Numbered from the stretch's first letter, positions 19,177-54,226 are shown. The stretch is DNA of 64,000 nt from an uncultured Saprospirales bacterium (GCA_938008535.1 CALLKF010000138.1:16930-80929), one strand, 5' to 3'. The notes: a model not told the origin generated them from the letters alone. Translations and numbers: made by a program.

Positions 19177-19209
19177 AAGAACGAGTTGCAATAAATGCAG
19201 CTCGTTCTT
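19177..19209 (+). terminator. Hairpin terminator between convergent genes
   Basis: Stem aagaacgag (19177-19185) / ctcgttctt (19201-19209), followed by attttat. It overlaps the stop codon of the minus-strand giant gene. Confidence 0.6.
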
Positions 19210-22200
19210 ATTTTATAATAATTTTGTTTGTTTTAGTATTTTTTTCATTTTGGAATCTTAAAAAATAAACGCCTTTTGCAAATTGCACAGTTGAAATAAT
19301 TTGCGTATTATTTGCGTTTGTTTGTATGCTTTGAATTAGACTTCCATTCGCATTATAAAGCGAAATAGTTCCTGCATCAGACGAAGAAATAGTGAGTATA
19401 TTTTTATCTGAAATCGTTTGGAAATAGAAAGAGTTAACATCATCTACCATTATTAAAATAATATTGGAATATGTTGTTTTACCATCTTCATCTACTTGTT
19501 TTAATCGATAATAATTATTGCCAATGATATAATTAAAATCATCTAAAGTATAATTGTTCAGTACACTAGTTGTGCCATTGCAATCCACAGTGCCAACATA
19601 TTCAAAGCTGCCATTTTTATTCATTCTTTCTACTTCAAAGTAGGCGCAATTTAATTCTGAAGCAGTTTGCCAATTGAGTTGGATAACAGATTTATTTTCC
19701 AAATACTTTCCTGAAAAATTTAGGAGTTCGACAGGCAAAGCAAAATTTTGTAACGTGTGTAAAAATATGCCACTGAATGCAGTAACATTAAAGTTAATTT
19801 CCCACATGTTGGTAGATGAATTCCACGTATTAACAACAGCTGGCGACTGCAGATATTCTGTAGTTCCTGAATAAGTGCCTGGCAAATGCGAAACAGATGT
19901 TCCATGATATTGTGTGATGACTAAATTATTTATGTTTAATGCATCACTAGGATTGGATGGCAAATGCGGATAGTTGCTTGCCACTGCTGTATTGTATGCA
20001 TTATACTCACTTTGCGGCACATATAGCGTAACATTTGCTGCGCCTGAAGATGCCGGTGTGATATCATAATGACGCTGCACATAAGGTTGTGTCTGATAAA
20101 ACTGAACGGATGCATCTATATACAATTTTGCGCTGGTGCTGCCTAAGACGTTTCCGCCAGGTGCATCTACAATTTTAACTATGACGTTGCCTGTTGTGTT
20201 GTCACAAATAAAACGAGTTAAACCATCTGTAATGGTACATGTATTTGTAGAAGCAACTGTTGCCGGTATCACGCTATACACATCAGATGTATCTTTGCAA
20301 CCTGCATTGAAAGTACGCAAGCGATAATTACCAAACAGCACAGGAAAGAATGAATTGGCTGTTGCACTTGCAATATCACTGCCGTTTAACTGCCATTGTT
20401 TGCTGCTGCTAGCTGGCACGGTGGCACTAAATTGTTTTCCGCTACTACAAGATTCTGTAAGCGTAGAAATATTTGGATAGGTTAAGATTTGTATGTTACT
20501 AACAGTATCACTTATTACTGCTGGTAATGTAGAAACTAACCGTATTTTATAGTTAGGTGCTTCTGTTAAACTGGCTGGTGTTTTTGTAATAATAGAATTC
20601 GGTGTAGTGATACTAATTAATGAATCTAAAATAGTTGGCGTAGCAAAAGAACCAACGCTATTACTTAATTGTACATAAAATTTATTGCCTGTTTTAAAAG
20701 TGCCGCAAGTACCTTTATCAAAAAAAACTTTGAGAGAATCCGGTGAACAAATGATAGTGCGCGAAACGGATACTGGTGTTATTTTTGGTGTTGGTACTAC
20801 TTTCATTATCCAGTAATCATTAAATCCAAAATTTGCAGTAGTTTTATTACCAGTAATGCCTGATTGAGAATAACCAGCAATAAGATAGCCACCATCTTTT
20901 GTGGCAACCATCGAAGTTACTTCATCAGCAGATGTTCCACCATATACTTTTTCATTTATTTTTATTCCATTAGCATCTATTTTCACAACCCAATAATCAT
21001 CAAAAATTCCAAATGAATTTATAGTTTTATTTCCGCTTATACCTGATGCAGAACTTGCACCTAACAAATATCCATTATCATTAGTAGGTGTTAATGATAC
21101 TATAGCATCTGTACTTGTTCCACCATATGCTCTATCCCATTGTTTTATGCCATTGGCATCTATTTTTACCAGCCAACAATCCGCGCTACCAAATACACCG
21201 GTAGTTTTATTGCCACCTACACCAGATAAAGAGGCACCAGCTAATAAATATCCGCCATCGTTAGTTATGGTTATTGCAGTTATTCCATCATTTACATTAC
21301 CACCATAAATACTATCCCATTGTTTAGTACCGTTGTGATCTATTTTAACGAGCCAATAATCAGTGCCGCCAAATGAATTTCTGGTTTTATTTCCACTTAT
21401 ATTTGATGATGAGCCGCCACCTAATAAATAGCCGCCATCTGCAGTAGATATAATTGCTTGCATTTGATCAATACCGGCTCCTCCAAAAATGCTATCCCAT
21501 TGCCTGGTGCCATTGGCATCTATTTTTATCACCCAATAATCATCAAAGCCAAATGAATTTCTGGTTTTGTTTCCACTAGCATTTGATTCAGAAATTCCAC
21601 CTAAAAGATAGCCGCCATCATTGGTGGAAATAATGCTTGTTAACATATCATCAGAAGTACCACCATAAATGCTGTCCCATTGTTTAGTTCCATTTGCGTC
21701 GATTTTCACTATCCAATAATCATATAATCCAATAGAATTTCTGGTTTTATTTCCATTAGCGTTTGATTCTGAATGTCCACCTAACAAGTAACCGCCGTCT
21801 GAAGTTGGTATTATTTTACTTAAGGATTCAAAACTCGTACCACCATAAATACTATCCCATTGTTTGATGCCATTGGAATCTATTTTTACTACCCAATAAT
21901 CAGATAGACCAAATGTGTTTCTGGTTTTGGTGATGCTGCTACCAGATGAAGAATTCCCACCTAATAAATAACCACCATCTGCCGTTGGTATTATTATATC
22001 TAAATTATCACCTGAAGTTCCACCAAAAGATGCCTGCCATTCTGTGGTGGTTTCGTTTGTACAATTGCATTGAGATGGTGTGACAACTGTAAATAAGTTT
22101 CCGATAATTACGGTATCATTAGGTGAAGAAGAACTCACTCTGATTTTATAAAACTCACCGATTGCTGTTGTTGGAATGGTAACGGTGAGTGTGCCGCTTG

Positions 22201-25200
22201 CAGCAACAGTAATTTGAGTAAGTAATGTAGTTGCTGATGTAAAACTGCCTGTTGCATCGCTGAGTTCCACTTTAATGGAATTTCCTGCTTTAAAATCCCT
22301 ACAAGAAGTTATACTATAATCTATTGCTAAAGTATTGCCTGCGCAGATAGTAGTGGTGCGTGCAGTAGCTGATAATTCGAGTGGTGGTGCTACTTTGACA
22401 AGCCAGTAATCAGAAGAGCCAAGATTTGTAGTTGTTTTGTTGCCTGAAATTGTTGAATATGAAAAACCTGACATAATAAAGCCATTATCTGAAGTAGTTA
22501 ATAAACTACTTAGATTGTCAGAAATTGTTCCGCCATAAGATTTATCCCAAATCATATTTCCATTATTATCAACTTTAGTTATCCAATAGTCAAAAGCACC
22601 GAGACCACCAATATTTGCAGTTGTTTTATTTCCAGTTGCACCTGAAGCAGATGTACCTGAAATATAAAATCCATTATCGGAAGTTGGTGTTATTGAACTC
22701 AAAAGTTCTCTGTTAGTGCCACCATACGATTTGTCCCAAATTATATTTCCGCTATTATCAATTTTAATCACCCAAAAATCTTCATTGCCAAAATTTCCTG
22801 TAATTTTATTGCCAGAAATAGATGATTCTGTATTGCCAGCTAATATTAATGAACCATCTGTTGCAATAGCAGCACATTGTAGCGTTTCATTTAAAGAACC
22901 ACCATAATTATAATCGCTAATTTTTGTGCCATCTTTATCAATCTTTATTATCCAAAAATCCTGACCGCCATAATTAGTAGTTGTTTTATCAAAAGCCGGT
23001 AATCCTCTTGAAATGCCACATAACCAAAAATTACCATCTGAAGATGCTTTTATTGTTTTTAGTTTATCATCTATATTGGAACCATAAACTTTTTCCCAAA
23101 TCTTATTTCCATCTGCATCTATTTTTATTATCCAGTAATCTTCGAATCCTGATATATATACTGATGTTGATTTATTGCCTGAAACAGAAGAACTAGAAGT
23201 GCCACCCAATATGAATGTTCCATCACCAACAACAGCGATAGAATTTAATTCATCAAAATTACTACCGCCATAATTTTTTTCCCATTGCTTTACACCATTT
23301 GCATCAATTTTAATTATCCAATAATCATTATTACCAAAGTTTGCAGTTGTTTTATTTCCTGATGTGCCAGACAAAGAATAACCGCCAATTAAATAACCAC
23401 CATCTGTTGTAGAAATTATACTTGTTAATTCATCATTGCCTGTTCCACCAAATACTTGTTCCCATTGTTTGATTCCATTTGCATCAATTTTTATTATCCA
23501 ATAATCTGTGCCGCCGAAGTTGGTTGTCGTTTTATTTCCGGAAATACCTGATTCAGAAGTTCCTCCTAAAATATAACCGCCATCAGATGTTGGAATATTA
23601 ACATAAGAAAAATCGCTCAATGTACCACCGTAGCTTTGTTGCCAATCAATTATCATATTATCCGTTGGACAAGTGCATTTACTTTGTGCTACAATGGTAA
23701 ATAAATTGCCAATGATAACAGTATCTTTTGGTGAAGATGAACTCACTCTGATTTTATAAAACACGCCAATTTCTGTTGTTGGAATGGTAACGGTGAGTGT
23801 GCCAATCGATGCAACAGTACTTTGTGTAAGCAATAAAGTTGCTGATGTAAAGCTACCGGTTGCATCGCTGAGTTCTACTTTGATGGTATTGCCTACTTTA
23901 AAATCCCGACAAGATGTTATACTATAATCTATTGCTAAAGTATTTCCAGCGCAGATAGTAGTGGTTCGTGGTGTAGCTGATAATACGAGTGGTGGTGCTA
24001 CTTTTGCAACCCAATAATCATTAGAGCCAAAATTTGCGGTTGTTTTATTGCCATTGATTCCTGAAGCTGAACGTCCACCAATTATATAACCATTATCATC
24101 TGTTGCAATTAAACTAGTTGTTATATCATCTGAGCTACCACCAAATATATCTTCTGATAGTTTAGTTCCATTATCATTTATTTTTACAATCCAATAATCA
24201 TTATTACCAAATGAATTTGTTGTTTTGTTCCCACTTGGCAATGATGGGCTATAACCACTTAATAAATAGTTTCCATCAGCTGAAGATATAAAATTCGATA
24301 GTATATCACCTGATGTACCACCATAAGCACTATCCCATTGTTTGGTGCCATTAGCATCTATTTTCACTATCCAGTAATCATAAGAAAGATTAAAAGAATT
24401 CCTAGTTTTGTTTCCACTTGCTGGTGAGCTAGAATTACCACTTAATAAATAACCACCATTACTTGTTGGTGCAATTGCTTTTAACTCATCAAATGATGTC
24501 CCACCGAAAATACTATCCCATTGCTTAGTACCATTTGCATTTATCTTTAAAAGCCAATAATCATTGATGCCAAAAGAGTTTCTAGTTTTATTACCATTTG
24601 CAGGTGATGAACTGCTACCACCTATCAAATATCCACCATCAGTAGTTGATGTAACCGAAATTAATTCATCATCAAAGGAACCACCATATATGCTATCCCA
24701 TTGTTTAGTTCCATTCGAATTTATTTTAACAAGCCAATAATCTTTGCCACCGAAACTGCTTTTAGTTTTTATACTATTTGCATTCGAAGAAGATTCTCCA
24801 CCTAACAAAAATCCGCCGTCTGAGGTTGGAAATATTGAATTAAGATGATCTACATTTGTACCACCATAAATACTGTCCCATTGTTTAGTACCATTCGCAT
24901 TTATTTTTACAATCCAGTAATCATCAGTATTAATGGTATTTCTAGTTTTAGTGCCGCTTGCAGGTGATGAGCTATAGCCACCCAATAAATAGCCACCATC
25001 GTTTGTTGAAGTGATAGTCTTTAATATATCAAGTCCTGTCCCACCATAAATACTATCCCATTGCTTTATGCCATTCATATCTATTTTTACTACCCAATAA
25101 TCAAAATTACCAAATGTATTTCTCGTTTTATTTCCGCCTGCATTTGAGAAAGAACTACCTCCTAATAAATAACCACCATCTGACGTTGGTATTATTATAC

Positions 25201-26242
25201 TCAATTCATCGATTGATGTACCACCAAAAGATGCTTGCCAATCAATAATAGTTGAATCGTTACAGTTACATTTTGCTGAAGCAACTATTGTAATTGGAAT
25301 TAATAACGTATCGGTATTTACAGGACTGTTACTTACTATGCGTATTCTATAAAATTCACCGACTTCTGTAGTTGGAATGGTACATGATATTGTACCGTTT
25401 CCACTTGCAATATTAGACACTGTTCCAATTGTAACAGGTGCTGCAAAACTTCCTGCTGCGTTACTTAATTGCACAGTAAAATCATTGGTTGCGCTAAATG
25501 TACCACAAGTAATTGCATAATCTACCAGTTGTGTGCTACCTGCACACCAGGTTGTGGAACGCGGTACAATGCTTACTTCTTGCGATGTAATTTTTATTGG
25601 TGTGATAAATGTATCTATAACGGTTGGACTGTTACTTACCAATCTTATTTTATATGCTGTGCCAATGGCTGTTGTTGGTGGAACCGTACATGAAATTATG
25701 CCACTACCACTTGCAACATTAGATACTGTACCTATTGTAACTGGTGATGCAAAACTACCTGCTGCATTACTCAATTGTACGGTAAAATCATTAGTTGTAT
25801 TGAATTTACCACAGGTAACAGCAAAATTTACTGTCTGTGTACTGCCTGCACACCAAGTGGTAGTTGCAGATGAAACAGAAATTTCAGGTGGTTTAACAGC
25901 GCCTAAAAAATAGTTATTGCTGTTTACTACTGGTGAAACTCTGTTTACACGAATTCTGTAATTTCCGGCAGCCGTGTTTGGCGGCAATGTAACGGTAAAA
26001 GATTGTGCGCCTGTTCCGTGTGTATTGGTGGCAAGTATAGTACCTGGGAAAATACCAAAATTCCCTAATTCAATCGTAAATGCTGATGTGCCTCCAAAGA
26101 TTCCTACTGTATAATCTACTGTAATACTATTGCCTGCACAATATGGATCAGCAGGCGTAACATTGGTTACAGTGATTGTCTGTCCATGTGCAAATAATGA
26201 AATAAAGATAAATACTAAAAATATTTGTATACGTATTTTCAT
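19208..26242 (-). CDS. Giant T9SS cargo protein with three seven-bladed beta-propeller-like repeat blocks and Ig-like domains
   Basis: 21 copies of a ~60-aa unit (GGTxxDxLxSIxPTSDGGYLLGGxSxSxxSGNKTxxxFGxxDYWIVKIDxNGxKQWDxxY) arranged in three blocks of seven. Ig-like domains separate the blocks. T9SS-type C-terminus (...GVYFLRFQNEKNTKTNKIIIK). I prefer the start at 26242 (MKIRIQIFLVFIFISLFAHGQ is a signal peptide) over the ORF-track ATG at 26344. Confidence 0.85.
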   Translation of the reverse strand: MKIRIQIFLVFIFISLFAHGQTITVTNVTPADPYCAGNSITVDYTVGIFGGTSAFTIELGNFGIFPGTILATNTHGTGAQSFTVTLPPNTAAGNYRIRVNRVSPVVNSNNYFLGAVKPPEISVSSATTTWCAGSTQTVNFAVTCGKFNTTNDFTVQLSNAAGSFASPVTIGTVSNVASGSGIISCTVPPTTAIGTAYKIRLVSNSPTVIDTFITPIKITSQEVSIVPRSTTWCAGSTQLVDYAITCGTFSATNDFTVQLSNAAGSFAAPVTIGTVSNIASGNGTISCTIPTTEVGEFYRIRIVSNSPVNTDTLLIPITIVASAKCNCNDSTIIDWQASFGGTSIDELSIIIPTSDGGYLLGGSSFSNAGGNKTRNTFGNFDYWVVKIDMNGIKQWDSIYGGTGLDILKTITSTNDGGYLLGGYSSSPASGTKTRNTINTDDYWIVKINANGTKQWDSIYGGTNVDHLNSIFPTSDGGFLLGGESSSNANSIKTKSSFGGKDYWLVKINSNGTKQWDSIYGGSFDDELISVTSTTDGGYLIGGSSSSPANGNKTRNSFGINDYWLLKINANGTKQWDSIFGGTSFDELKAIAPTSNGGYLLSGNSSSPASGNKTRNSFNLSYDYWIVKIDANGTKQWDSAYGGTSGDILSNFISSADGNYLLSGYSPSLPSGNKTTNSFGNNDYWIVKINDNGTKLSEDIFGGSSDDITTSLIATDDNGYIIGGRSASGINGNKTTANFGSNDYWVAKVAPPLVLSATPRTTTICAGNTLAIDYSITSCRDFKVGNTIKVELSDATGSFTSATLLLTQSTVASIGTLTVTIPTTEIGVFYKIRVSSSSPKDTVIIGNLFTIVAQSKCTCPTDNMIIDWQQSYGGTLSDFSYVNIPTSDGGYILGGTSESGISGNKTTTNFGGTDYWIIKIDANGIKQWEQVFGGTGNDELTSIISTTDGGYLIGGYSLSGTSGNKTTANFGNNDYWIIKIDANGVKQWEKNYGGSNFDELNSIAVVGDGTFILGGTSSSSVSGNKSTSVYISGFEDYWIIKIDADGNKIWEKVYGSNIDDKLKTIKASSDGNFWLCGISRGLPAFDKTTTNYGGQDFWIIKIDKDGTKISDYNYGGSLNETLQCAAIATDGSLILAGNTESSISGNKITGNFGNEDFWVIKIDNSGNIIWDKSYGGTNRELLSSITPTSDNGFYISGTSASGATGNKTTANIGGLGAFDYWITKVDNNGNMIWDKSYGGTISDNLSSLLTTSDNGFIMSGFSYSTISGNKTTTNLGSSDYWLVKVAPPLELSATARTTTICAGNTLAIDYSITSCRDFKAGNSIKVELSDATGSFTSATTLLTQITVAASGTLTVTIPTTAIGEFYKIRVSSSSPNDTVIIGNLFTVVTPSQCNCTNETTTEWQASFGGTSGDNLDIIIPTADGGYLLGGNSSSGSSITKTRNTFGLSDYWVVKIDSNGIKQWDSIYGGTSFESLSKIIPTSDGGYLLGGHSESNANGNKTRNSIGLYDYWIVKIDANGTKQWDSIYGGTSDDMLTSIISTNDGGYLLGGISESNASGNKTRNSFGFDDYWVIKIDANGTRQWDSIFGGAGIDQMQAIISTADGGYLLGGGSSSNISGNKTRNSFGGTDYWLVKIDHNGTKQWDSIYGGNVNDGITAITITNDGGYLLAGASLSGVGGNKTTGVFGSADCWLVKIDANGIKQWDRAYGGTSTDAIVSLTPTNDNGYLLGASSASGISGNKTINSFGIFDDYWVVKIDANGIKINEKVYGGTSADEVTSMVATKDGGYLIAGYSQSGITGNKTTANFGFNDYWIMKVVPTPKITPVSVSRTIICSPDSLKVFFDKGTCGTFKTGNKFYVQLSNSVGSFATPTILDSLISITTPNSIITKTPASLTEAPNYKIRLVSTLPAVISDTVSNIQILTYPNISTLTESCSSGKQFSATVPASSSKQWQLNGSDIASATANSFFPVLFGNYRLRTFNAGCKDTSDVYSVIPATVASTNTCTITDGLTRFICDNTTGNVIVKIVDAPGGNVLGSTSAKLYIDASVQFYQTQPYVQRHYDITPASSGAANVTLYVPQSEYNAYNTAVASNYPHLPSNPSDALNINNLVITQYHGTSVSHLPGTYSGTTEYLQSPAVVNTWNSSTNMWEINFNVTAFSGIFLHTLQNFALPVELLNFSGKYLENKSVIQLNWQTASELNCAYFEVERMNKNGSFEYVGTVDCNGTTSVLNNYTLDDFNYIIGNNYYRLKQVDEDGKTTYSNIILIMVDDVNSFYFQTISDKNILTISSSDAGTISLYNANGSLIQSIQTNANNTQIISTVQFAKGVYFLRFQNEKNTKTNKIIIK
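20800..25250 (-). repeat. 21 tandem ~180-nt blade repeats in three blocks (~20800-22050, ~22400-23660, ~24010-25250)
   Basis: The recurring DYW(I/V/L)(V/I)KI...NG.K.W motif was counted directly in the translation, seven per block. Confidence 0.8.
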
Positions 26243-26391
26243 AAGCAAAATGGTTTGTATAAAAATAGCACCATATGTATATAGCCACAATAACACGAAT
26301 GTGTTATACATTGAAATAAAAAAAACTGGTATATTGAGTATCATAAGCTCTATTAAATAGAATTTATCAAGCCATAAAAATCATAAAACAA

Positions 26392-45119: not shown

Positions 45120-45731
45120 TTGAACGCAACCAATAATTCAGTGATAGAAAAGAGATTTATGCTGCAAAATATGGCTTCTAAAAGTTGTATTAAACTCATT
45201 GAACTTTTCTTTACACACAAAGATGGCGTGCATGTAAAAACTGTTTTTTTAGGTGAAGCTAATTTAGTTTTTGATTCCAATAAAATTACCGAAAAAGAAA
45301 TTGCGTTATGTTTCCAGCAGCTTGGTTTTAATGTAATCAATGATCCTGAAGTGGAAATTGTAGAGAAGATAAAAGTAGCTGCGATTGAGTTAATTTATTA
45401 TGCAAATAATACAAACTCGCTTATCAGAAATTCGGATTATATCAGCGAACGTGTGCAGTTGCCATATGAAAGAATTAGTAAAGTTTTTTCTAAAATTACC
45501 AATACTACTTTAGAGAAATATATCATTCTATTAAAAATTGAAAAAGCTAAAGAGTTGCTTTTGAAAAATGATTTTACATTAAGTGAAATTTCTTACATGC
45601 TTGGATATAGCAGTGTTCATTACCTAAGTAATCAATTTAAAAAGGTTACAGGGTTTTCTGTTTCGCAATACAAAGGCTTAGAAGATCCTCATCGTATTCC
45701 TTTAGAAAATTTGTTAGATAACATTTTTTAA
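45120..45731 (+). CDS. AraC family transcriptional regulator
   Basis: C-terminal HTH_18 pattern (LEKYIILLKIEKAKELL...TLSEISYMLGYSSVHYLSNQFKKVTGFSVSQY). TTG start according to the ORF track; an alternative ATG is at 45159. Confidence 0.8.
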   Translation: MNATNNSVIEKRFMLQNMASKSCIKLIELFFTHKDGVHVKTVFLGEANLVFDSNKITEKEIALCFQQLGFNVINDPEVEIVEKIKVAAIELIYYANNTNSLIRNSDYISERVQLPYERISKVFSKITNTTLEKYIILLKIEKAKELLLKNDFTLSEISYMLGYSSVHYLSNQFKKVTGFSVSQYKGLEDPHRIPLENLLDNIF

Positions 45732-45821
45732 GGTATTGGCAGAATTTTATACAATCTATTCTGAATTGTGTAAACTACCTCAAAATAGATTTCATTAATA
45801 TTGTATTATAAAAATAAAGCA

Positions 45822-46061
45822 ATGAAAATCAAAAACAACATAGCACTTAGTGATTCAGGATTTTTGTTTAATCCGTCAACTGGCGATTCGTATTCTGTAA
45901 ATCCAATTGGTCAAGAAATAATTCGCCTTTTTCAAGAACATAAAACAATGGACGATGTAGTGAAGCTAATTACCAAAGAATATAGAATTGATAAAGATAC
46001 AGTTGAAAAGGATTTGTACGATTTTCAAAATATGCTTCAATCTTATAAATTAAGTGAATAG
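45822..46061 (+). CDS. PqqD family (RiPP-recognition-element-like) small protein
   Basis: FLFNPSTGDSYSVNPIGQEIIRLFQEHKTMDDVVKLITKEYRIDKDTVEKDLYDFQNMLQSYKL fits the PqqD winged-helix pattern (xLN..g..IW.l.dG..t..ei...l...y.v......D...F...L). ATG at 45822 preferred over the TTG at 45801. Confidence 0.75.
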   Translation: MKIKNNIALSDSGFLFNPSTGDSYSVNPIGQEIIRLFQEHKTMDDVVKLITKEYRIDKDTVEKDLYDFQNMLQSYKLSE

Positions 46062-46100
46062 TAATAGATAATTATTTATTCAAAATTAAAATGAATCAAC

Positions 46101-47282
46101 ATGCAATATCCATTGGAAATAGAAGCTGAATTATATTCTTCTCAATTAGTTAGAGAGAAGAAGGTAATAAAAGCATCCAAAATAAAATCAATAAAAAAAG
46201 TACCGTTACCGAAAACAGTTACTAAGATGACTGAGTCGAAACCTAAATATACAATTGCTGTAACTGGCTTAAATGCAATAGATAGTCCAGGTCCAGGAAT
46301 TTCGGTTATTCGTGCATTGCGTGATGCAACATCGTTTGATGTGAAAATTATTGGTCTTTCATACGAATCTTTAGAACCAGGAATTTATATGCATGATTTG
46401 ATTGATAAAACGTATCAAGTGCCATATCCAGGTGCTGGACAAGAAGTGTTGTTTGATCGCTTTGCATACATAAATTCAATTGAAAATATTGATTTCCTAT
46501 TTCCAAATTTTGATGCTGAATTATTCAATTTCATTTCTTTAAAAGAAAAAATGGAAACAGAATTAGGTATTAAAATGGTGTTGCCAACACAAGAACAATT
46601 TGAAGCAAGACACAAGGTAAACCTTTTTGAATTTGGTAAAAAGCATAAAATTAAAGTGCCGTTTGCAAAGATGGTTTATTCTTTAAGTGAAATTCCTTCT
46701 ATCACAAAAGAGTTTGGTTTTCCATTAGTAGTGAAAGGGAAATTTTATGATGCAAAAATTGCATACAGCAACGATCAAGCGATGCAGCACTTCAATAAAA
46801 TAAGTACAGAATGGGGTTTGCCTGTGTTGATTCAACAATTTGTGCATGGCTCAGAAGTCAATGTTTGCGGCGTCGGCAATGGAAAAGGTGTAACATTAGG
46901 TGCAGTACCAATGCGTAAATTATACATTACTGATAAAGGAAAAGCTTGGGCTGGCGTTACGTTGGACGATAATAATTTATTGAGTACTACGCATAGTTTT
47001 GTGAAAAATACGAAGTGGTGTGGCGCATTTGAATTAGAGTTTATAAAAACTGCAGATGATGAGTATTTCTTAATTGAAATAAATCCACGTTTTCCAGCTT
47101 GGTGCTATTTAACGGTTGGTGCTGGACAAAATCAAATTGAGTCTGTAGTTAATTTAGCGATGCAAAAAAAAGTGGAACCGTATAAAAATTATGATGTTGG
47201 AAAAATGTTTATCAGATACTCTTATGATATGATTGTAAATATGCCTGAGTTTGAACAAATTTCAACAATTGGCGAATTATAG
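46101..47282 (+). CDS. ATP-grasp domain ligase
   Basis: Pre-ATP-grasp Rossmann-like N-terminus (TIAVTGLNAIDSPGPGISVIRAL), FGFPLVVKGKF ATP-binding strand, and C-terminal FELEFIKT...YFLIEINPRFPAW Mg/ATP motif. An alternative start is M43 at 46227; the first 42 aa are Lys-rich and not part of the fold. Confidence 0.8.
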   Translation: MQYPLEIEAELYSSQLVREKKVIKASKIKSIKKVPLPKTVTKMTESKPKYTIAVTGLNAIDSPGPGISVIRALRDATSFDVKIIGLSYESLEPGIYMHDLIDKTYQVPYPGAGQEVLFDRFAYINSIENIDFLFPNFDAELFNFISLKEKMETELGIKMVLPTQEQFEARHKVNLFEFGKKHKIKVPFAKMVYSLSEIPSITKEFGFPLVVKGKFYDAKIAYSNDQAMQHFNKISTEWGLPVLIQQFVHGSEVNVCGVGNGKGVTLGAVPMRKLYITDKGKAWAGVTLDDNNLLSTTHSFVKNTKWCGAFELEFIKTADDEYFLIEINPRFPAWCYLTVGAGQNQIESVVNLAMQKKVEPYKNYDVGKMFIRYSYDMIVNMPEFEQISTIGEL

Positions 47283-47384
47283 AAAGATGGTTTATAGCGT
47301 TCGTAATAATTGTTTTAAACGTTATTACAAAAATTACAAACCAATCTAAAATCTCATTAAAATAAAAACACAATAAAGCACGAT

Positions 47385-48743
47385 ATGGAAAAGAAACAGT
47401 ATGAAAGACCGATTATAAAATCGCTAAATGCAGGTTTAATGAATAAGTTCGGAACACGCACCGAATATGCACCAATGACACACATCGATAATGTTGCAGT
47501 GAAGGATTTGATTCGCGAATTTGGTTCACCTTTATTTGTGTTGTCAGAAAGAAAAATCAGAGACAATTTTAAAACGGCAAAGCGCATTTTTGAAACACGT
47601 TATCCAAAAGTACAATTCGCATGGTCTTATAAAACGAATTACATCAATGCAATTTGTAACATATTCCATCAAGAAGGTTCTTGGGCCGAAGTAGTGTCGC
47701 GTTTTGAGTATGAAAAAGCTTTAAAAAATGGTGTGCCTGGTAAAAAGATATTGTTCAACGGACCTGATAAAACGGATGATGACTTGCGCACTGCTATCAA
47801 AAATGATTCACCAATTCATATCGATCATTTAGATGAATTGTATCGTTTGATAGAGTTAGCTACAGAATTAAAAACGAAGCCTCGCGTTGCCATTCGTGTA
47901 AACATGGATACAGGTGTGTATCCAATGTGGGATCGATTTGGTTTTAATTATGAGAACGGTCAAGCTTGGGACGCCATCAATAAAATCATGGCAACTGATA
48001 AATTAAATTTAATAGGATTGCATTGTCATATTGGTACATACATGCTAGTACCAAGTGCGTATGGTGTGGCTGCGAATAAAATGGCAGACCTTGCACTTGG
48101 TGTGAAAAAACGTTATAACAAAGTAATCAGCTATATAGATATGGGTGGCGGCTTTGCTTCTAAAAATACATTGAAAGGTTCGATGCAATTAGGTGTAGAT
48201 TATGTTCCTGAAATCAATCAGTATGCAGAAGCAATTTGTTCTACCTTATTAAATGCTGGTTTTGATAAAGATGAATTGCCTTATTTATATTTAGAAACAG
48301 GACGCGCATTAATTGATGATGCTGGATTTTTATTAGGGTCTGTGATTTCTAACAAACGCTTGTCTGATGGAAGACGCGCAACGATTATGGACTTTGGTGT
48401 GAATATTTTATTTACTGCTTTTTGGTACGATCATAAAGTTTCGCCAGCGCAAGAATTTGGAATGCACACAGAAGATTCAGTAATTTATGGACCTTTGTGT
48501 ATGAATATTGATGTAGTACGCGAAAATATTTCATTACCACCATTAAAGGCAGGCGACCAAGTGGTAGTGCATTATGTTGGTGCATATAATATCACACAAT
48601 CGATGCAGTTTATTGCATTGCGACCTGCTGTTGTATTGATTGATTTATCAGGAAAACCACATGTTATCAAACAAAAAGAAAGTTTGAAAGATGTAGAAAA
48701 TAATGAAGTGATGCCTGATTATTTAAAAAAAATTAAGCTGTAA
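47385..48743 (+). CDS. PLP-dependent decarboxylase, Orn/Lys/Arg/DAP decarboxylase family (fold type III)
   Basis: FAWSYKTN (PLP-lysine context), HIDHLDEL, LHCHIGT, DMGGGF, and C-terminal GPLCMNID...VGAYN motifs typical of this family. Confidence 0.85.
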   Translation: MEKKQYERPIIKSLNAGLMNKFGTRTEYAPMTHIDNVAVKDLIREFGSPLFVLSERKIRDNFKTAKRIFETRYPKVQFAWSYKTNYINAICNIFHQEGSWAEVVSRFEYEKALKNGVPGKKILFNGPDKTDDDLRTAIKNDSPIHIDHLDELYRLIELATELKTKPRVAIRVNMDTGVYPMWDRFGFNYENGQAWDAINKIMATDKLNLIGLHCHIGTYMLVPSAYGVAANKMADLALGVKKRYNKVISYIDMGGGFASKNTLKGSMQLGVDYVPEINQYAEAICSTLLNAGFDKDELPYLYLETGRALIDDAGFLLGSVISNKRLSDGRRATIMDFGVNILFTAFWYDHKVSPAQEFGMHTEDSVIYGPLCMNIDVVRENISLPPLKAGDQVVVHYVGAYNITQSMQFIALRPAVVLIDLSGKPHVIKQKESLKDVENNEVMPDYLKKIKL

Positions 48744-48786
48744 AAAAGTAATTTTTTAGATTTCTAATAATCAATAAATATTAAGT

Positions 48787-50970
48787 TTGAAAAAAGTTAA
48801 GCAACATATTATTTTATATATAGAAGGCATTCTAAATAGCTATTCGCAAATCTTTTTCTCTACCAATAAATTATTTGCGTTGCTGCTCATGTTTGTTACA
48901 TTCTTTGACCTACGCTTAGGTTTTAGTGGTTTGTTAGCGATATTGATTGGACAATTTACAGCAACGGTTTTTAATTTTAATAAAGAACATATTCGCAGCG
49001 GCTCATACACGTTCAACGCAGTCTTAGTTGGCATTGCCATCGGTAATATGTATGAATACAATGTATCGTTTTTTGTATTACTATTGATGTCGTCTATTTT
49101 AGTTTTCTTTATTACGCTATGGTTCTCAACTTCGCTCGCAAAACGCGGTTTACCATACTTAAGTATTCCATTTATTATTACGATTTGGATAGTTGTTTTA
49201 AGTAGTGGAAACTTTTTCTCGTTAAAACCAAACATAGAACATACCTATTTTTTGAATACTATTTTCCCTGGTGTTTTTAACCAAACTACACAAGATATCA
49301 GTGGTTACAGGTTTGCCAATTTTATTTATTTATACTTGCGTTCGCTTGGTGCTATTTTTTTTCAATACAATGATTTAGCTGGAATTTTTATTGTTATCGG
49401 TTTGATAATTTATTCAAGAATTGCCTTTGTATTATCTGTATTTGGATTTATCGTTGGCTATTTATTTTATTATTTTTTACAAGGAGATTTTACACCATTA
49501 GTATACACATACATTGGTTTCAATTTTATTTTAACCGCAATTGCATTAGGTGGATTTTTTGTGGTAGCATCTAATAAATCATTTTTGTTGATTCTATTTA
49601 TGATGCCAATTATCGGTTTATTAATTAGTTCGCTGAATGTATTTTTTATTAATTTACATTTACCAATTTATTCGTTGCCGTTCAATATTATAGTGCTATT
49701 GTGTTTGTCTGCGTTATATCTTCGACCAAGTGCAAACGGCTTGCAATTGGTAGGTGTGCAGCAATATTCACCTGAAAAAAATCACTATAAATATTACAAT
49801 TCATTAGAACGTTTTAGTGCTGAAACCTATTATCATATTGCATTGCCAATTATGGGTGAGTGGCATATTTCGCAAGGACACAATGGTGATATTACACATA
49901 AAGAAGACTGGAAATTTGCCTGGGATTTTGATTTGCTTGATATAGACGATAAATCATTTAAATTACCAGGCGAAGCTTTGACTGATTTTTATTGCTACGA
50001 TATGCCTGTGTTGGCGCCTGCAGATGGATGGATTGTAACTATTGTAGATACTATTTTAGATAATCAAATCGGTGAAGTAAATTTGGAAAATAATTGGGGA
50101 AATACCATCATCTTAAAACATGGTGAATTACTGTACTCAAAATTATCGCACTTAAAACATGACTCAATAAAAGTAAAAGTTGGTGATTTTGTACGCAAAG
50201 GAACTTGTATCGCAACAGTAGGAAATTCAGGTAGATCACCAGAGCCACACTTACATTTCCAAATGCAGGCAACACCACATATTGGTTCTAAAACAGTGTC
50301 GCATCCAATCAGTTATTACTTGTCAAATGAAAATGAACTTCTTAATTTTCATTCGTTTGATATTCCAGTACAACATGAAGTTGTAAGTAATATTTTAACA
50401 ACAAAATTATTGTTAGACAGCTTCAATTTTATTCCTGGTGAAAAAATAAAATGGTTACTAAAAAATGAAAGTAAAGAAGAAAATGTGCAATGGGAAATTT
50501 TTACGAACGCATTGAATCAATCTTATATTTATTGTCATACAACGAAGTCAACTGCGTATTATGTAAACAACGGAACGCTTTTTTATTTTACTGATTTTTA
50601 TGGTGATAAGAATTCCTTTCTGCATTCATTCTATTTGGCTGCGCATCGTGTGTTGTTAGCATATTATGAAGATGTAACGATAAAAGATAAATTACTCATC
50701 GATTCTTTTTTCAATCCAATTATAAAAACTATACACGATTTTACTGCACCATTTTTTCATTATTGTACTGCTGATTATCAGTTTCAATTTATTTCAACAG
50801 ATGACGAACATTTGCCAACTAATATAAATGCCAAAAGTATAAGCGAAGGAAAAATATTCGGCAAGAAAACACAGACGATTGAAAGCATTATTACGTTCGA
50901 TAAAAATACAATACAAAGTGTCGAAATTTTAAATGGAAATAAAAAAATAACAGCCACATGCGTACGATAA
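48787..50970 (+). CDS. Fusion protein: urea-transporter-like polytopic membrane domain + M23 zinc metallopeptidase domain
   Basis: The N-terminal ~330 aa contain ~10 TM helices with UT-like ILNSYSQIFF and SGSYTFNAVLVGIAIG. The C-terminal part has HNGDITHKEDWKFAWDFD (HxxxD) and GNSGRSPEPHLHFQ (HxH), the M23 zinc ligands. A TTG start is needed to include the UT N-terminal motif. Confidence 0.8.
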   Translation: MKKVKQHIILYIEGILNSYSQIFFSTNKLFALLLMFVTFFDLRLGFSGLLAILIGQFTATVFNFNKEHIRSGSYTFNAVLVGIAIGNMYEYNVSFFVLLLMSSILVFFITLWFSTSLAKRGLPYLSIPFIITIWIVVLSSGNFFSLKPNIEHTYFLNTIFPGVFNQTTQDISGYRFANFIYLYLRSLGAIFFQYNDLAGIFIVIGLIIYSRIAFVLSVFGFIVGYLFYYFLQGDFTPLVYTYIGFNFILTAIALGGFFVVASNKSFLLILFMMPIIGLLISSLNVFFINLHLPIYSLPFNIIVLLCLSALYLRPSANGLQLVGVQQYSPEKNHYKYYNSLERFSAETYYHIALPIMGEWHISQGHNGDITHKEDWKFAWDFDLLDIDDKSFKLPGEALTDFYCYDMPVLAPADGWIVTIVDTILDNQIGEVNLENNWGNTIILKHGELLYSKLSHLKHDSIKVKVGDFVRKGTCIATVGNSGRSPEPHLHFQMQATPHIGSKTVSHPISYYLSNENELLNFHSFDIPVQHEVVSNILTTKLLLDSFNFIPGEKIKWLLKNESKEENVQWEIFTNALNQSYIYCHTTKSTAYYVNNGTLFYFTDFYGDKNSFLHSFYLAAHRVLLAYYEDVTIKDKLLIDSFFNPIIKTIHDFTAPFFHYCTADYQFQFISTDDEHLPTNINAKSISEGKIFGKKTQTIESIITFDKNTIQSVEILNGNKKITATCVR

Positions 50971-52331
50971 AATATATCATAATATTGTTGCTGGTTTCAA
51001 AAATAGGCAACACTTTTGCACAATTAAATTCATCTGATATTGAGCAAAAAAGCTATCAGTATTATGCAGATAAAAAATGGAAACAATTAATAAAATATGG
51101 CAACTCGGTTGTAAACCAAGGTTATGATGAATATTATTTCAATCTGCGTTTAGGTATTGCATGCTTTAATAAATTCAACTATTATAAAGCAGCAGATTAT
51201 TTCAAACGTGCCTTAAAAAATGATGCAACAAGTGATGTCGCAAAAGAGTATTTATACTGGTGTAATATTTATATGGATGATGAAAAAAAAGCAGCTGAAT
51301 ATTATGCAATGTTGCCTGATGATACACAAAAAAGAATTCATTATAAACCAAAGAAAATACTGGAATCTATATTTGTAGAAGGTGGTTTGAAAATTTCTGA
51401 CAAGCAAAATGAAGCGAAAAATTTAGGTTATTTCAATCTTGGATTGAATCATAAACTTTCTTCAACATTTAGTATTTATCAAGCATATACGTATCAGCAG
51501 CAATCACAAATTTGGGGAAATTTTAAACAGCATCAATATTATTTTGCTCCAACTGTTACTTTCAAACATCGATGGAAATTGACGCTAGGTTTTCATTATG
51601 CAAACTATAATAGTAATCTGAATTTTCCAGATCAATTTGTCGCACAAAATCCAAAACCACTCGTTCCACCACCAGCTGGCACGTCTTTCTTTGATTCTAC
51701 TACTTATCACAAAGGATTGATGAATGGTAAATTTGTATCAAATAGTTTGTTTTCACAAATAACTATTTCTAAATCAATAAAGCGTATAAATATCAATCTA
51801 CATCTTGCTGTATTTACAGAGTTTAATAAACCAAATTATAGATTACTTGCTCGCGATTCGATAAATATTAAAGAGATGCAAGCAGCAACATTAATCAACG
51901 AAAATAATGTGATTGTAAATAAAGATAGTCTTGTGAATAGTAAATCAAATGTCTTTACTTATTCAGTAGGACTTGGTTTGTTTTATAATTTTCCACGTGT
52001 AACTATTGGTGCTGATATTTCTACTATAGTTTCGTATAAAAAAGCATACGTGGTTTGTTCTCCTTCTATAAGTGCTTTGTTGGCAAAAAGATTTTTAATT
52101 AGTTCTTATTTTACTTATAAAGGTTTTTATCCAATGGCAACTAATGATGCTGCTTTTTTATACAATAGTTATGATCAAATTAAATACAAGATAAGTACAA
52201 CAGGAACAGTAATTGCATCCAAAAATGTGAATATTTATGCAACTTATCAGTTTGAAAAAATAAGTCAAATTCTGTTGCCTTCAGTATATAATTTGCATAC
52301 TATTTTACTTGGATTAAAATTTACTTTATAA
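50958..52331 (+). CDS. Secreted TPR-containing protein with C-terminal beta-barrel-like region (putative outer-membrane protein)
   Basis: Signal peptide (LLLVSKIGNTFAQ), TPR-like helices (YYKAADYFKRALKND), then ~300 aa of alternating beta-strand pattern ending LLGLKFTL. The start overlaps the upstream gene by 13 nt. Confidence 0.55.
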   Translation: MRTIKYIIILLLVSKIGNTFAQLNSSDIEQKSYQYYADKKWKQLIKYGNSVVNQGYDEYYFNLRLGIACFNKFNYYKAADYFKRALKNDATSDVAKEYLYWCNIYMDDEKKAAEYYAMLPDDTQKRIHYKPKKILESIFVEGGLKISDKQNEAKNLGYFNLGLNHKLSSTFSIYQAYTYQQQSQIWGNFKQHQYYFAPTVTFKHRWKLTLGFHYANYNSNLNFPDQFVAQNPKPLVPPPAGTSFFDSTTYHKGLMNGKFVSNSLFSQITISKSIKRININLHLAVFTEFNKPNYRLLARDSINIKEMQAATLINENNVIVNKDSLVNSKSNVFTYSVGLGLFYNFPRVTIGADISTIVSYKKAYVVCSPSISALLAKRFLISSYFTYKGFYPMATNDAAFLYNSYDQIKYKISTTGTVIASKNVNIYATYQFEKISQILLPSVYNLHTILLGLKFTL

Positions 52332-52382
52332 AAATATATTCAACTTTTTAACAGCTCATTACTAACTAATAAAACAACAAAA

Positions 52383-52991
52383 ATGAAAAAAACAATCACA
52401 ACAATTGTAATAGTACTGGCTATTACTATGCTTGCAAAGGCGCAAGATGACAAGGTAATTGCTGCTCTTTCCAGCAGCTATGCAGGTGAAAGCAACAAAG
52501 AATATTTGGCATCTATTGTCACGCTCGAAAACGTTTACGATGCAAATTCTTACATGCTGAATTTGCGTTTAGGTTGGTTGCATTATTTAAAAAAAGATTA
52601 TGCAAAATCACAAGAGTATTATAAAAAAGCAATTGCTTTAGAACCAAAAAGTATTGAAGCAAGATTAGGTTTAGTATCGCCAACTGCAGCGTTGGAAAAA
52701 TGGGACGACGTACTCAAAACATACAAAGATATTTTAGTAATTGATCCAAATAACACAGTGGTAAATTATCGCGTTGGTTATATTTATTATTTCAGAAAAA
52801 ATTTCGTTGAAGCAGAAAAATATATTGTTTCTGTGTTGAAATTATATCCTTTTGATTATGATACGAATGCATTGTTAGGTGCAAATTATTTAGCGCAAGG
52901 AAAAATTAAAGAAGCAAAAAAATACTATAGCGTTGCTTTGGCGTATAATCCGAATTCAAAAGAAATACAAGAAGTGATGAAGAAACTGTAA
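52383..52991 (+). CDS. Secreted tetratricopeptide-repeat protein
   Basis: Signal peptide (LAITMLAKAQ) and repeated TPR pattern (YAKSQEYYKKAIALEPKS, EAKKYYSVALAYNPNS). Confidence 0.7.
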   Translation: MKKTITTIVIVLAITMLAKAQDDKVIAALSSSYAGESNKEYLASIVTLENVYDANSYMLNLRLGWLHYLKKDYAKSQEYYKKAIALEPKSIEARLGLVSPTAALEKWDDVLKTYKDILVIDPNNTVVNYRVGYIYYFRKNFVEAEKYIVSVLKLYPFDYDTNALLGANYLAQGKIKEAKKYYSVALAYNPNSKEIQEVMKKL

Positions 52992-53013
52992 ACTATTGCC
53001 GTAAATCAGTTTC

Positions 53014-53043
53014 AAAAAACCTGCAAATTATTGCAGGTTTTTT
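53014..53043. terminator. Bidirectional rho-independent terminator
   Basis: Hairpin aaaaaacctgcaa / atta / ttgcaggtttttt: a 13-bp stem with an A-run and a T-run. It sits between convergent genes and touches the stop codon of the minus-strand gene. Confidence 0.9.
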
Positions 53044-54226
53044 ATTTTTTTAGAAAGTATTTTACTTTCAATTTTTGTAATTGTTTCTCATAAAATTCAT
53101 AGGATAAAGCTGCTGCTATAATGGTTAATGAAAGTATGATAATATAAATTACTGGCACCACATAGAAATTGTATTTCTTGCAAAAATAAATCACTACAAA
53201 TATAATAGACACGTGATATAGATAAATTCCGTAAGAGATTTTGCCTAAATAATTAAAAACGGTATTGTCTAAAATTGGAATGCGTTTGTTGTCTTTTACA
53301 AAATATAAAATTAAAAAAGACAATAGAACTGAAAATAATTCTTGTGTTACTAACGGAATTGGATATTTAGAAAGAATAACAAGAATTGCACCAATTCCAC
53401 AAATAATTGCGCGAGTTTTCGTTACATTTTTTGCAATCCAATCTTTTTTATAGAAGAAAAGATATGCAGCAAACGCGCCAATAAACATACAAGATAATCT
53501 TGTTAGGTATAAGAAGAACATAATAAAATGGAAAATAGAAATTACTGTTTTAGATTTCAAAATCCAGTAACCAATCATCAAACCAGTAAATGCTATTAGT
53601 GAAATAATGTAATAAAATAAAATACTGTTGCGAATTGATTTGACAATATCTTTAGACTTGCGCATCACTGGTGCCCAAATAAAATAGAAAAATTCTTCAA
53701 TACCTGTGCTCCACAAATGACCTGCAACAATGGTCCAATTATCTAAAACCACAGAAATCGTTAAAGATAAATGCGGTAACATGATTAGTGATAAAAAAAA
53801 GTATACACCATGATTCATCATAATTGGTGTTAAAGTTGATTTGCTATATGTAAACGCGTAAAATAAATCACTAATTTCTTTCACAGGTGTGTGTGCAATT
53901 ACAAACCATTGAATAAATAGCACCAAATAATATGGAGGCCAAATCCTGAAAATACGATTCAAAAAAAACTTTTTCAACACAACATCATTTGTTGCCTGCT
54001 TTTCTTCAATTAAAATATGTGTAATTAAAAAACCACTGATTACAAAAAATGCAGTCAAGAAAACAGCACCAATATTGGTGTAAAATAATATATGCTTATG
54101 CTGATAATTTTTTATACCAAGAATACTCAACAAGTCATTCGTATGCCCAAAAACGCCATACGTTGCCAGGTAGAAACGGATTGCTGTAAGATTGGTGAAA
54201 TAATGATGTTTTACTTTTACTGACAT
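53042..54226 (-). CDS. Acyltransferase family 3 membrane protein
   Basis: Polytopic, with NRIFRIWPPYYLVLF and WSTGIEEFFY motifs typical of acyltransferase_3. Confidence 0.7.
   Translation of the reverse strand: MSVKVKHHYFTNLTAIRFYLATYGVFGHTNDLLSILGIKNYQHKHILFYTNIGAVFLTAFFVISGFLITHILIEEKQATNDVVLKKFFLNRIFRIWPPYYLVLFIQWFVIAHTPVKEISDLFYAFTYSKSTLTPIMMNHGVYFFLSLIMLPHLSLTISVVLDNWTIVAGHLWSTGIEEFFYFIWAPVMRKSKDIVKSIRNSILFYYIISLIAFTGLMIGYWILKSKTVISIFHFIMFFLYLTRLSCMFIGAFAAYLFFYKKDWIAKNVTKTRAIICGIGAILVILSKYPIPLVTQELFSVLLSFLILYFVKDNKRIPILDNTVFNYLGKISYGIYLYHVSIIFVVIYFCKKYNFYVVPVIYIIILSLTIIAAALSYEFYEKQLQKLKVKYFLKK

Follow-up and report, generated by a model that had tools for sequence, protein, structure and literature searches.

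We analysed a seven-gene cassette on a 64,000-nucleotide (nt) stretch of DNA from an uncultured Saprospirales bacterium (GCA_938008535.1 CALLKF010000138.1:16930-80929). The whole stretch is referred to as the window, and the coordinates of the cassette are positions in it. The cassette combines a PqqD-family protein, an ATP-grasp amide ligase, a pyridoxal phosphate (PLP) decarboxylase, a channel fused to a peptidase and two envelope proteins; its probable function is the synthesis and export of a small amine or amide. Its seven open reading frames (ORFs), all on the + strand, extend from 45120 to 52991 and are followed by a strong hairpin terminator. The gaps between the genes are 90, 39, 102, 43 and 51 nt, with one 13-nt overlap (50958-50970). 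The ORFs, coordinates, gaps and overlap were all found as the original prediction, made from the sequence alone, had given them.

The first ORF (45120-45731) encodes an AraC-family regulator (HTH_18, 1e-13). It is followed by a stand-alone 79-aa PqqD-family protein (45822-46061), which had been proposed as a recognition element (RRE) of the kind used for peptides that are made by ribosomes and modified after translation (RiPPs). The third gene (46101-47282) encodes the ATP-grasp amide ligase, of the PRK12767 type annotated as 'CPS-like', with its catalytic core starting at 46227. The fourth (47385-48743) encodes a FigC-like PLP decarboxylase of fold type III (alanine-racemase fold), matching ornithine (Orn)/diaminopimelate (DAP)/arginine-type decarboxylases (6e-28 plus 6e-12). 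The fifth gene (48787-50970; Pfam UT and Peptidase_M23) is a fusion of three parts: a urea-transporter (UT) channel domain (residues 1-315, 48787-49731; Pfam UT, 2e-55), a linker and M23 zinc-metallopeptidase domain (residues ~316-500, 49732-50286; Peptidase_M23, 4e-16), and a mostly beta-strand C-terminal domain of ~230 aa (residues 501-727, 50287-50970), which is confidently folded in the AlphaFold2 (AF2) model. It overlaps the sixth gene (50958-50970), which encodes a signal-peptide protein with N-terminal tetratricopeptide repeats (TPR) and a C-terminal outer-membrane beta-barrel (50958-52331; TPR and porin-family matches). The last gene (52383-52991) encodes a periplasmic, signal-peptide-bearing TPR protein (TPR_2, 2e-19). 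Profile scans with Pfam and NCBIfam upheld all of the domain assignments, that of the ATP-grasp enzyme also by its fold. The predicted architecture, from cytoplasmic enzymes through an inner-membrane channel-peptidase to periplasmic and outer-membrane proteins, was likewise borne out.

The intrinsic terminator at 53014-53043 (+) consists of a 13-bp stem followed by a T-run, and the folding statistics agree with this earlier assignment (deltaG -15.6 kcal/mol, z = -4.3, none of 200 shuffled sequences equally stable). It sits between the convergent TPR and acyltransferase genes. Rfam revealed no riboswitch or leader RNA in the cassette. Its sole match, to 'Leu_leader' at 53013-53072 (-), reached 29.5 bits against a gathering score of 50 and marks only the terminator hairpin; the hairpin and its U-run are the most likely explanation of this match, and together they may stop transcription from both directions. 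The Bacteroidetes promoter consensus TTTG-N17-21-TAnnTTTG had no match in the cassette, and its occurrence in the window was below chance expectation.

We scanned one genome per GTDB species for the ATP-grasp protein and obtained 448 relatives, from which 80 loci were kept (ATP-grasp identity 62-96%). These come from Flavobacteriales, Chitinophagales/Saprospirales, Sphingobacteriales, Cytophagales and Bacteroidales. Synteny was assessed by tblastn with all of the window proteins, and the denominators below are the loci with a long enough contig. We observed the following. Downstream of AraC, the order of the six remaining genes is kept in practically all sufficiently long loci: PqqD is in place in 78/78, the decarboxylase in 73/73, UT-M23 in 65/65, the TPR-barrel protein in 62/63 and the TPR protein in 49/54. 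Median identity across the loci is 73% for the decarboxylase, 65% for the ATP-grasp enzyme, 47% for UT-M23 and 27% for the barrel protein. The window flanks are unrelated housekeeping genes (Mqo, ferredoxin, DUF3817, acyltransferase and dehydroquinate synthase) that recur only in the two closest relatives. Genes inserted in variant loci are heterogeneous (multicopper oxidase, sigma factor, LytTR regulators, proteins with type IX secretion system (T9SS) tails). Resistance-nodulation-division (RND) pump genes near 10 loci and two-component regulators near 8 were judged to be background, AraC being the sole recurrent neighbour. As collinearity is kept in 80 loci while the flanks are not conserved, chance juxtaposition is excluded. 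The cassette is thus confirmed as one co-conserved functional unit across Bacteroidota, as the original prediction had anticipated. That the locus is headed by AraC holds for the window, where the regulator lies upstream, but not in general: AraC is found upstream on the same strand in 41 of the 68 loci. Since it is present in only ~60% of them, it is accessory and outside the core.

Searching 1.8 billion cluster representatives exhaustively with HMMER, we obtained 203 ATP-grasp clusters at E < 1e-30 and inspected the genomic context of eleven of these. Distant relatives (25-45% ATP-grasp identity, 31-70% GC, Legionellales included) retain PqqD, the ATP-grasp enzyme, the decarboxylase and a fusion of the UT channel. 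Some of these carry a sirtuin deacylase on the channel where M23 would be, alone or together with a GNAT domain. Two such loci (L082, from soil, 70% GC; L084, 51% GC) encode a secreted TPR protein, PqqD, a tandem double ATP-grasp, the decarboxylase and UT-SIR2. A third (L090, 70% GC) has a secreted TPR protein, a PqqD~ATP-grasp fusion, a second diverged ATP-grasp, the decarboxylase and UT-SIR2-GNAT. In L087-89 (65% GC) PqqD is followed by an ATP-grasp~decarboxylase fusion, near TPR, HEAT and TonB_C-like proteins. L086 (31% GC) carries PqqD, ATP-grasp, decarboxylase and UT-M23 and lacks TPR genes; a Legionellales metagenome-assembled genome (MAG) encodes a CydA with 85% identity to the one in L086. 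In L094 the six genes of the window occur in permuted order, and on two short contigs (L083, L085) PqqD lies immediately 5' of ATP-grasp, which in L085 is followed by the decarboxylase. Secreted TPR homologs adjoin PqqD in L082, L084, L090, L091 and L094, and many variants carry two ATP-grasp modules. What is invariant, then, is a core made up of PqqD, one ATP-grasp module or two, the decarboxylase and a channel of the UT type joined to an amide hydrolase, usually with a secreted TPR protein. Two of the fusions are natural single proteins: P0325 joins PqqD to ATP-grasp through the PqqD C-terminus, and P0314, on 7 contigs, joins ATP-grasp to the decarboxylase. Together with the permuted order, these fusions are classical evidence that the proteins work together.

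On the L085 contig (57% GC) a proline-racemase-family gene (3317-4102, 4e-75) follows the decarboxylase, at the position expected for the UT fusion. Because the contig breaks off at that point, the UT gene may sit further downstream.

The closest PDB entry to the decarboxylase is the N-citrylornithine decarboxylase FigC/FslC (7KH2, 1e-58), followed by DAP decarboxylase (DAPDC; 1TWI, 7e-42) and BtrK (1e-22). FigC falls in a clade with SbnH, AcsE, MccE, BtrK and DAPDC, unrelated to polyamine synthesis, whose members other than DAPDC and D-ornithine decarboxylase (D-ODC) decarboxylate side-chain-conjugated amino acids (PMC7857480). The window enzyme carries the Cys-Met loop of FigC and not the Cys-Glu with which DAPDC binds the distal amino group, and by analogy with the clade we infer that it acts on a side-chain-conjugated amino acid. 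Where FigC binds citrate through H357, R387 and N389, the window enzyme has Ile, Gln and Met, and these are invariant in 71 Bacteroidota sequences, in which the motifs GPLCMNID and GAYNxTQxMQF are also invariant. The Legionellales, SIR2-type and fusion-type variants have the same pocket. This identity suggests a single substrate for all of the variants, one that differs from both DAP and citryl conjugates and has a less anionic far end.

A genuine FslC is rejected on both the score (NF041039, 240 bits against a cut-off of 500) and the lost H357/R387/N389, and a genuine DAP decarboxylase (LysA) on the score (TIGR01048, 215.5 against 297.9 bits) and the Cys-Met loop. The exosortase-A-associated decarboxylase family TIGR03099 also matched below its cut-off (3e-36). 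Residues 1-30 (47385-47480), outside the region alignable to FigC and DAPDC, carry a motif Y-E-[RK]-P-x-I that is kept in most variants and loose in the SIR2-type L082, L084 and L090. This segment forms the junction of the ATP-grasp~decarboxylase fusion and may be a docking element.

The AF2 model of UT-M23 is confident (pLDDT 90.6, pTM 0.83), and by Foldseek its UT domain superposes on the Desulfovibrio urea transporter (dvUT) with TM 0.83-0.86. Known transporters (dvUT, UT-A, UT-B) thus share the fold, and most of their pore Phe, Leu and Gln residues are kept (Q21, F76, L80, F245, L249), as is the cytoplasmic Q21-I22 pair. The pore Thr pair, on the other hand, is Ser (S126, S296), and an invariant Ala189 takes the place of the periplasmic-side Gln/Glu. 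Urea recognition uses a Q-V/I...T motif on both sides of the pore (PMC11589576). A genuine urea transporter is rejected on these replacements and on the TIGR03441 score (124.8 against 274.6). Unlike known urea transporters, moreover, the channel here is always hydrolase-fused and lies in a biosynthetic operon, with no urease or urea-metabolism genes linked. The UT-fusion family comprises 4207 matches among 90%-identity protein clusters.

In the M23 domain H371, D380, H455, H488 and H490 are invariant in 59 sequences. The spacing from the first His to Asp is 8 residues rather than 3, as in the M23A type, and Foldseek matched the domain to LytM, DipM and ShyA. It follows the tenth transmembrane helix of the UT fold. 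The termini of UT proteins are intracellular, and Lys and Arg number ~10 in the predicted cytoplasmic loops against 3 in the periplasmic ones. From this positive-inside bias and the position of the termini, the M23 domain and the ~230-aa C-terminal domain are predicted to lie in the cytoplasm, an unusual place for M23. The C-terminal domain had no Pfam match even at E = 10, and the top Foldseek hits, which UT and M23 dominate, included no PDB entry distinctly matching it; its AF2 fold is confident, and W569, G606, F615 and D651 are invariant. This orphan domain is always joined to the M23 version of the fusion.

The SIR2 domain that takes the place of M23 matches SIRT4 best (2e-33), along with Sir2Tm and Sir2Af, and its GAGxS motif, catalytic His and Zn-Cys4 site are all intact. 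By these features it is a bona fide sirtuin deacylase and not a defence-type NADase. An anti-phage defence role for the cassette is rejected on this ground and on the PADLOC scan, which gave no match in the cassette.

In the ATP-grasp enzyme, ATP-grasp_3 barely reaches its Pfam cut-off (23.3 against 23.2 bits) and ATPgrasp_Ter stays under its own, so the assignment leans on the full-length PRK12767-type NCBIfam matches and on the predicted fold. Profile matches in the PDB were only carbamoyl-phosphate synthetase (CPS) and the orphan structure 2PN1. For the AF2 model (pLDDT 83) Foldseek returned biotin carboxylase, CPS, 2PN1 (TM 0.68/0.77), RizA, PurD and Ddl. The enzyme is not near RimK or LysX, and a graspetide-like enzyme, one of the options raised by the original prediction, did not hold up: the Foldseek top 50 contained no graspetide cyclase, and no precursor was found. 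The wider family counts 6582 matches among 90%-identity protein clusters.

Homologs of other lineages start at the equivalent of 46227. Residues 1-42 (46101-46226) form a lineage-specific extension, in which an acidic 14-mer (MQYPLEIEAELYSS) precedes a variable linker rich in Lys. Both the ATG at 46101 and codons 1-14, which encode MQYPLEIEAELYSS, are kept in L001 and L002 with synonymous changes, and for this reason the 393-aa form is probably real. The extension could serve as a tether or pseudo-substrate for the RRE. In other lineages a variable Glu/Lys-rich tail is found at the PqqD C-terminus instead.

Two ATP-grasp paralogs occur in other surroundings. One (48% identity; L093, 9001-10056) stands alone beside GcpE and PorZ. 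The other (36%; L095/L096, 9001-10047) belongs to a glycan-modification locus with MBOAT, GT2, epimerases, a DegT aminotransferase and an M1 peptidase.

The 79-aa protein matches PF05402 above the cut-off of the family (4e-12), as had been expected of it, and the PqqD family profile has its best PDB matches in the lasso B1 proteins TbiB1 (7e-13) and TfuB1 (4e-5). To judge by these matches, it is a typical discrete RRE. A LysW-like carrier function through its C-terminal Glu (...YKLSE), raised earlier, is rejected. In LysW systems a conserved Glu at the end of an EDWGE-type tail is where a LysX-type ATP-grasp makes the attachment. The C-terminal residue varies among 79 sequences (E 25, D 15, N 12, K 9, A 8 and others), tail lengths differ, P0325 is fused through that very C-terminus, and the ATP-grasp enzyme is not LysX/RimK-like.

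We clustered all ORFs of at least 12 aa in the 80 loci and found no conserved small ORF outside the main genes, a search that could miss very divergent peptides. The clustering gave just alternative-frame shadows inside the UT-M23 gene. The intergenic gaps of the window are too short for a precursor gene, and a 47-aa ORF in L082 looks spurious. The earlier view of a self-contained maturation and export module therefore stands in part. The genes form one unit reaching from the cytoplasm to the outer membrane, but with no precursor gene in or near the cassette a self-contained RiPP module was not shown.

The pairing of an ATP-grasp enzyme with a decarboxylase of the DAPDC clade, found as a fusion in P0314, resembles that of butirosin side-chain synthesis (BtrI carrier, BtrJ ATP-grasp, BtrK decarboxylase and the deprotecting enzyme BtrG). 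There, a small partner, a ligase and a decarboxylase of the same clade act on a tethered amino acid, with late cleavage of an amide, and the two ATP-grasp modules of many variants recall the two ligations of BtrJ. The parallel has its limits. The PqqD/RRE fold is not a phosphopantetheinyl carrier with the amino acid bound as a thioester, the profile scans gave no PP-binding match in the cassette, and the counterpart of the cleavage enzyme is a channel-fused M23 or sirtuin. The BtrJ/BtrK analogy drawn by the original prediction is sound for the pairing and the clade, while BtrK itself is distant.

ATP-grasp enzymes make amide bonds. M23 DD-endopeptidases cleave those at the side-chain amine of DAP, and N-epsilon-acyl-lysine is cleaved by sirtuins. 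The exchange of M23 for a sirtuin, while the decarboxylase pocket stays constant, argues for an intermediate that bears its amide on a lysine-like alkylamine. This is a chemical constraint that can be tested. On this basis we favour, tentatively and at somewhat less than an even chance, a pathway of tethering, ligation, decarboxylation and release built around the inner-membrane channel. The order of its steps and the partners in them would be as follows. PqqD would work in one complex with the ATP-grasp enzyme and the decarboxylase, most likely holding a peptide or protein handle encoded outside the cassette. The ATP-grasp enzyme would join a carboxylate and an amine in an amide of isopeptide type, the amino acid being attached through its side chain with its alpha groups free. 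The FigC-like decarboxylase would then strip the alpha-carboxyl group of the conjugate to leave an N-acyl-diamine or an omega-aminoacyl amide. The hydrolase on the cytoplasmic end of the channel, M23 or elsewhere the sirtuin acting as an N-acyl-lysine deacylase, would cut the amide, the sirtuin route being NAD-dependent. The small amine or amide product would exit through the modified urea-type pore. In Bacteroidota the periplasmic TPR protein and the TPR-barrel outer-membrane protein would handle it in the envelope, and AraC with its sensor-like N-terminal domain would control the operon where present.

Two orientations of the ligation can be envisaged. In the first, the handle would supply the carboxylate and lysine, Orn or DAP the amine, giving a diamine; the ATP-grasp and FigC precedents favour it. 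In the second, a lysine of the handle would be acylated by Glu or Asp to give an omega-amino acid, as the sirtuin precedent favours.

Several points weigh against the tether-and-release pathway. A cycle that just regenerates its carrier would do no more than spend ATP on converting an amino acid to an amine, which looks wasteful. UT pores pass very small neutral solutes, so that a charged diamine would be a poor permeant, and an outer-membrane TPR-barrel seems unneeded for a tiny molecule. The ATP-grasp fold lies near small-molecule ligases (biotin carboxylase, CPS, PurD, RizA) and not near peptide- or protein-modifying ATP-grasps. More than 90 loci yielded neither an RRE ligand nor a precursor gene, so the handle is hypothetical, and the cytoplasmic placement of M23 draws on homology and charge bias. 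One variant (L091) has PqqD and two ATP-grasp proteins and no decarboxylase, and L087-89 have no recognisable UT gene. The ATP-grasp paralogs at 48% and 36% identity sit without PqqD, from which it follows that the wider family probably has other substrates, small-molecule or glycan.

The broader proposal, that the cassette represents a new multi-phylum envelope machine in which an RRE-ligase-decarboxylase assembly acts on a handle and a channel-welded hydrolase couples synthesis to export, is possible and, in our estimate, rather doubtful. If true, it would point to an amine or amide that is widespread outside the cells of Bacteroidota, Legionellales and soil bacteria. No description of the cassette, which spans Bacteroidota orders, a Legionellales genome and high-GC metagenome contigs, turned up in full-text literature searches, and a survey of RREs (PMC12710340) does not mention it. 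The original prediction could not match the gene combination to any characterised pathway, and our comparisons agree: for each of the closest systems, at least one defining feature was looked for in the cassette and was absent. The cassette is best described as an RRE-associated ligate-then-decarboxylate operon with an unprecedented fusion of a UT channel to M23 or a sirtuin. It would be the first case of a UT-family channel recruited into biosynthesis and the first in which such a channel is fused with an M23 peptidase or sirtuin, and it would extend RRE biology past pathways with a locally encoded precursor. The UT~M23/sirtuin element could justify a new class once the product is identified, and knowledge of it could bring to light an extracellular metabolite or envelope component that is common among environmentally dominant bacteria.

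A classical RiPP pathway with its precursor encoded elsewhere is an unlikely alternative to the tether-and-release pathway. The RRE would present a leader peptide, the ATP-grasp enzyme would add an amino acid or form a lactam at a side chain of the core peptide, the decarboxylase would trim the added residue, M23 would be the leader peptidase and the UT domain only an anchor; the product would be a modified peptide. PqqD being a typical discrete RRE nearest to lasso B1 speaks for this, and the fusion of an RRE to a modifying enzyme, as in P0325, is common among RiPP enzymes (PMC12710340). The set of RRE, protease and ATP-dependent carboxylate activator is formally parallel to the B1/B2/C logic of lasso peptides. 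However, there is no precursor gene, and profile scans of the seven proteins found no B2 transglutaminase-type protease, no C asparagine-synthetase-type cyclase and no ATP-binding cassette (ABC) exporter. Nor is there any other peptide exporter, such as one of the major facilitator superfamily (MFS). The lack of a conserved small ORF in or beside the cassette, in the 80 loci and the distant variants alike, is unusual for a system so conserved. The ATP-grasp enzyme lies outside the graspetide and RimK/LysX structural neighbourhood, a sirtuin is ill-suited to replace a leader peptidase, and the conserved pore residues indicate that the UT domain is more than an anchor.

Pathways that build on a scaffold peptide ('pearlin'-type) follow an idea like that of the tether-and-release pathway. 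In the late steps of fosfazinomycin synthesis, for example, a small product derived from an amino acid is built on an RRE-recognised peptide and released by a protease (PMC13622209). These pathways, however, encode the scaffold in the cluster and extend its C-terminal alpha-carboxylate, whereas no scaffold gene was found here and the PLP decarboxylase needs a side-chain linkage. 3-Thiaglutamate is another case of this type.

Less probable still is a carrier-free, secreted N-acyl-diamine of the rhizoferrin type, for example a metallophore. An ATP-grasp enzyme would replace the synthetase of the NRPS-independent siderophore (NIS) type and join an acid to the side-chain amine of Orn, lysine or DAP, the FigC-like enzyme would decarboxylate the conjugate, PqqD would be an accessory subunit and the AraC regulator would respond to metal. 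The Francisella rhizoferrin pathway (NIS synthetase FigA/FslA with FigC/FslC) has the same ligate-then-decarboxylate logic, an amino acid being acylated on its side-chain amine before its alpha-carboxyl is removed, and the same Cys-Met catalytic loop (PMC7857480). FigC is also the nearest solved homolog, and the ATP-grasp fold is nearest to small-molecule ligases, the L-amino-acid ligase RizA included. The regulator and a multicopper oxidase gene inserted in two loci (L008, L010), both taken up below, fit a metal connection as well. In the decarboxylase, on the other hand, the citrate-binding H357/R387/N389 have given way to invariant Ile/Gln/Met, and no conserved TonB-dependent receptor or uptake genes lie nearby. 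Such a pathway would leave the RRE without a role, along with a hydrolase that would destroy the product. Further, AraC is missing from ~40% of the loci and from the distant variants, and the match to the heavy-metal-associated (HMA) domain is sub-threshold. The Francisella pathway differs also in lacking an RRE, a channel-hydrolase fusion and TPR proteins, and the cassette in lacking an MFS exporter and a siderophore receptor.

To judge by relatives, which open with MLQNM..., the AraC protein probably starts at the ATG at 45159. Its N-terminal ~75 aa (45159-45390) are HMA-like, with Pfam HMA below threshold (best 3e-4, full-length), and its C-terminal part is the DNA-binding HTH_18/AraC domain. 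The motif in this part is KNM-x-S-x-SC in most lineages and KNMTCSCC, with an MxCxxC, in Bacteroidales (L074, L077, L080). Met and Cys are invariant, and the first Cys of MxCxxC is lost outside Bacteroidales. This HMA-like domain may point to metal-responsive control. In two Flavobacteriales/Cryomorphaceae MAGs a ~566-aa multicopper-oxidase-like gene lies between PqqD and ATP-grasp (L008, 8293-9996; L010, 3759-5456), an assignment made by reading the translation, where HWHG and HPH motifs occur. The insert and the HMA-like regulator may jointly hint at a link to copper.

An envelope modification, in which an amine-bearing substituent or a modified DAP/lysine peptidoglycan or glycan precursor is installed through the TPR and barrel proteins, is very unlikely: the below-cut-off matches of the decarboxylase to TIGR03099 and of the TPR protein to PrsT (1e-12), the normal action of M23 on peptidoglycan cross-links at the side-chain amine of DAP, a TPR-plus-barrel layout resembling PgaA, BcsC and NfrA, and the ATP-grasp paralog in the glycan-modification locus L095/96 speak for it, but glycosyltransferase, synthase, flippase and exosortase are all missing from the cassette, M23 is predicted to lie in the cytoplasm, the SIR2/GNAT variants and the TPR-less Legionellales variant do not suggest peptidoglycan chemistry, and no known exporter matches the barrel in sequence. 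Its nearest parallels would be the ligase, carrier, decarboxylase and hydrolase set of exosortase-A (PEP-CTERM) systems and the amidation of capsule uronic acids. The M23 domain has the Zn and catalytic residues of the peptidoglycan endopeptidases and, by prediction, not their periplasmic or extracellular location with access to the cell wall. Synthase-dependent exopolysaccharide export (PgaA/BcsC/AlgK-AlgE) shares the TPR-plus-barrel layout of the sixth protein but pairs it with an inner-membrane glycosyltransferase synthase, which has no counterpart in the cassette.

In the TPR-barrel family 23 of 27 members have TPR matches, and a few match BBP2_2, Porin_4 or NfrA_C. Only the TPR part matches PDB sequences. 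The C-terminus (...GLKF/...ITWKL) has the aromatic end typical of outer-membrane barrels.

Elsewhere in the window, and unrelated to the cassette, are two giant ORFs for T9SS cargo proteins, which are typical of Bacteroidota. They lie at 28-7269 (+) and 19208-26344 (-) and encode 2413 and 2378 aa. Both end in Por_Secre_tail sorting domains; CHU_C-associated Ig-like repeats occur in one of them, a GEVED domain in the other.

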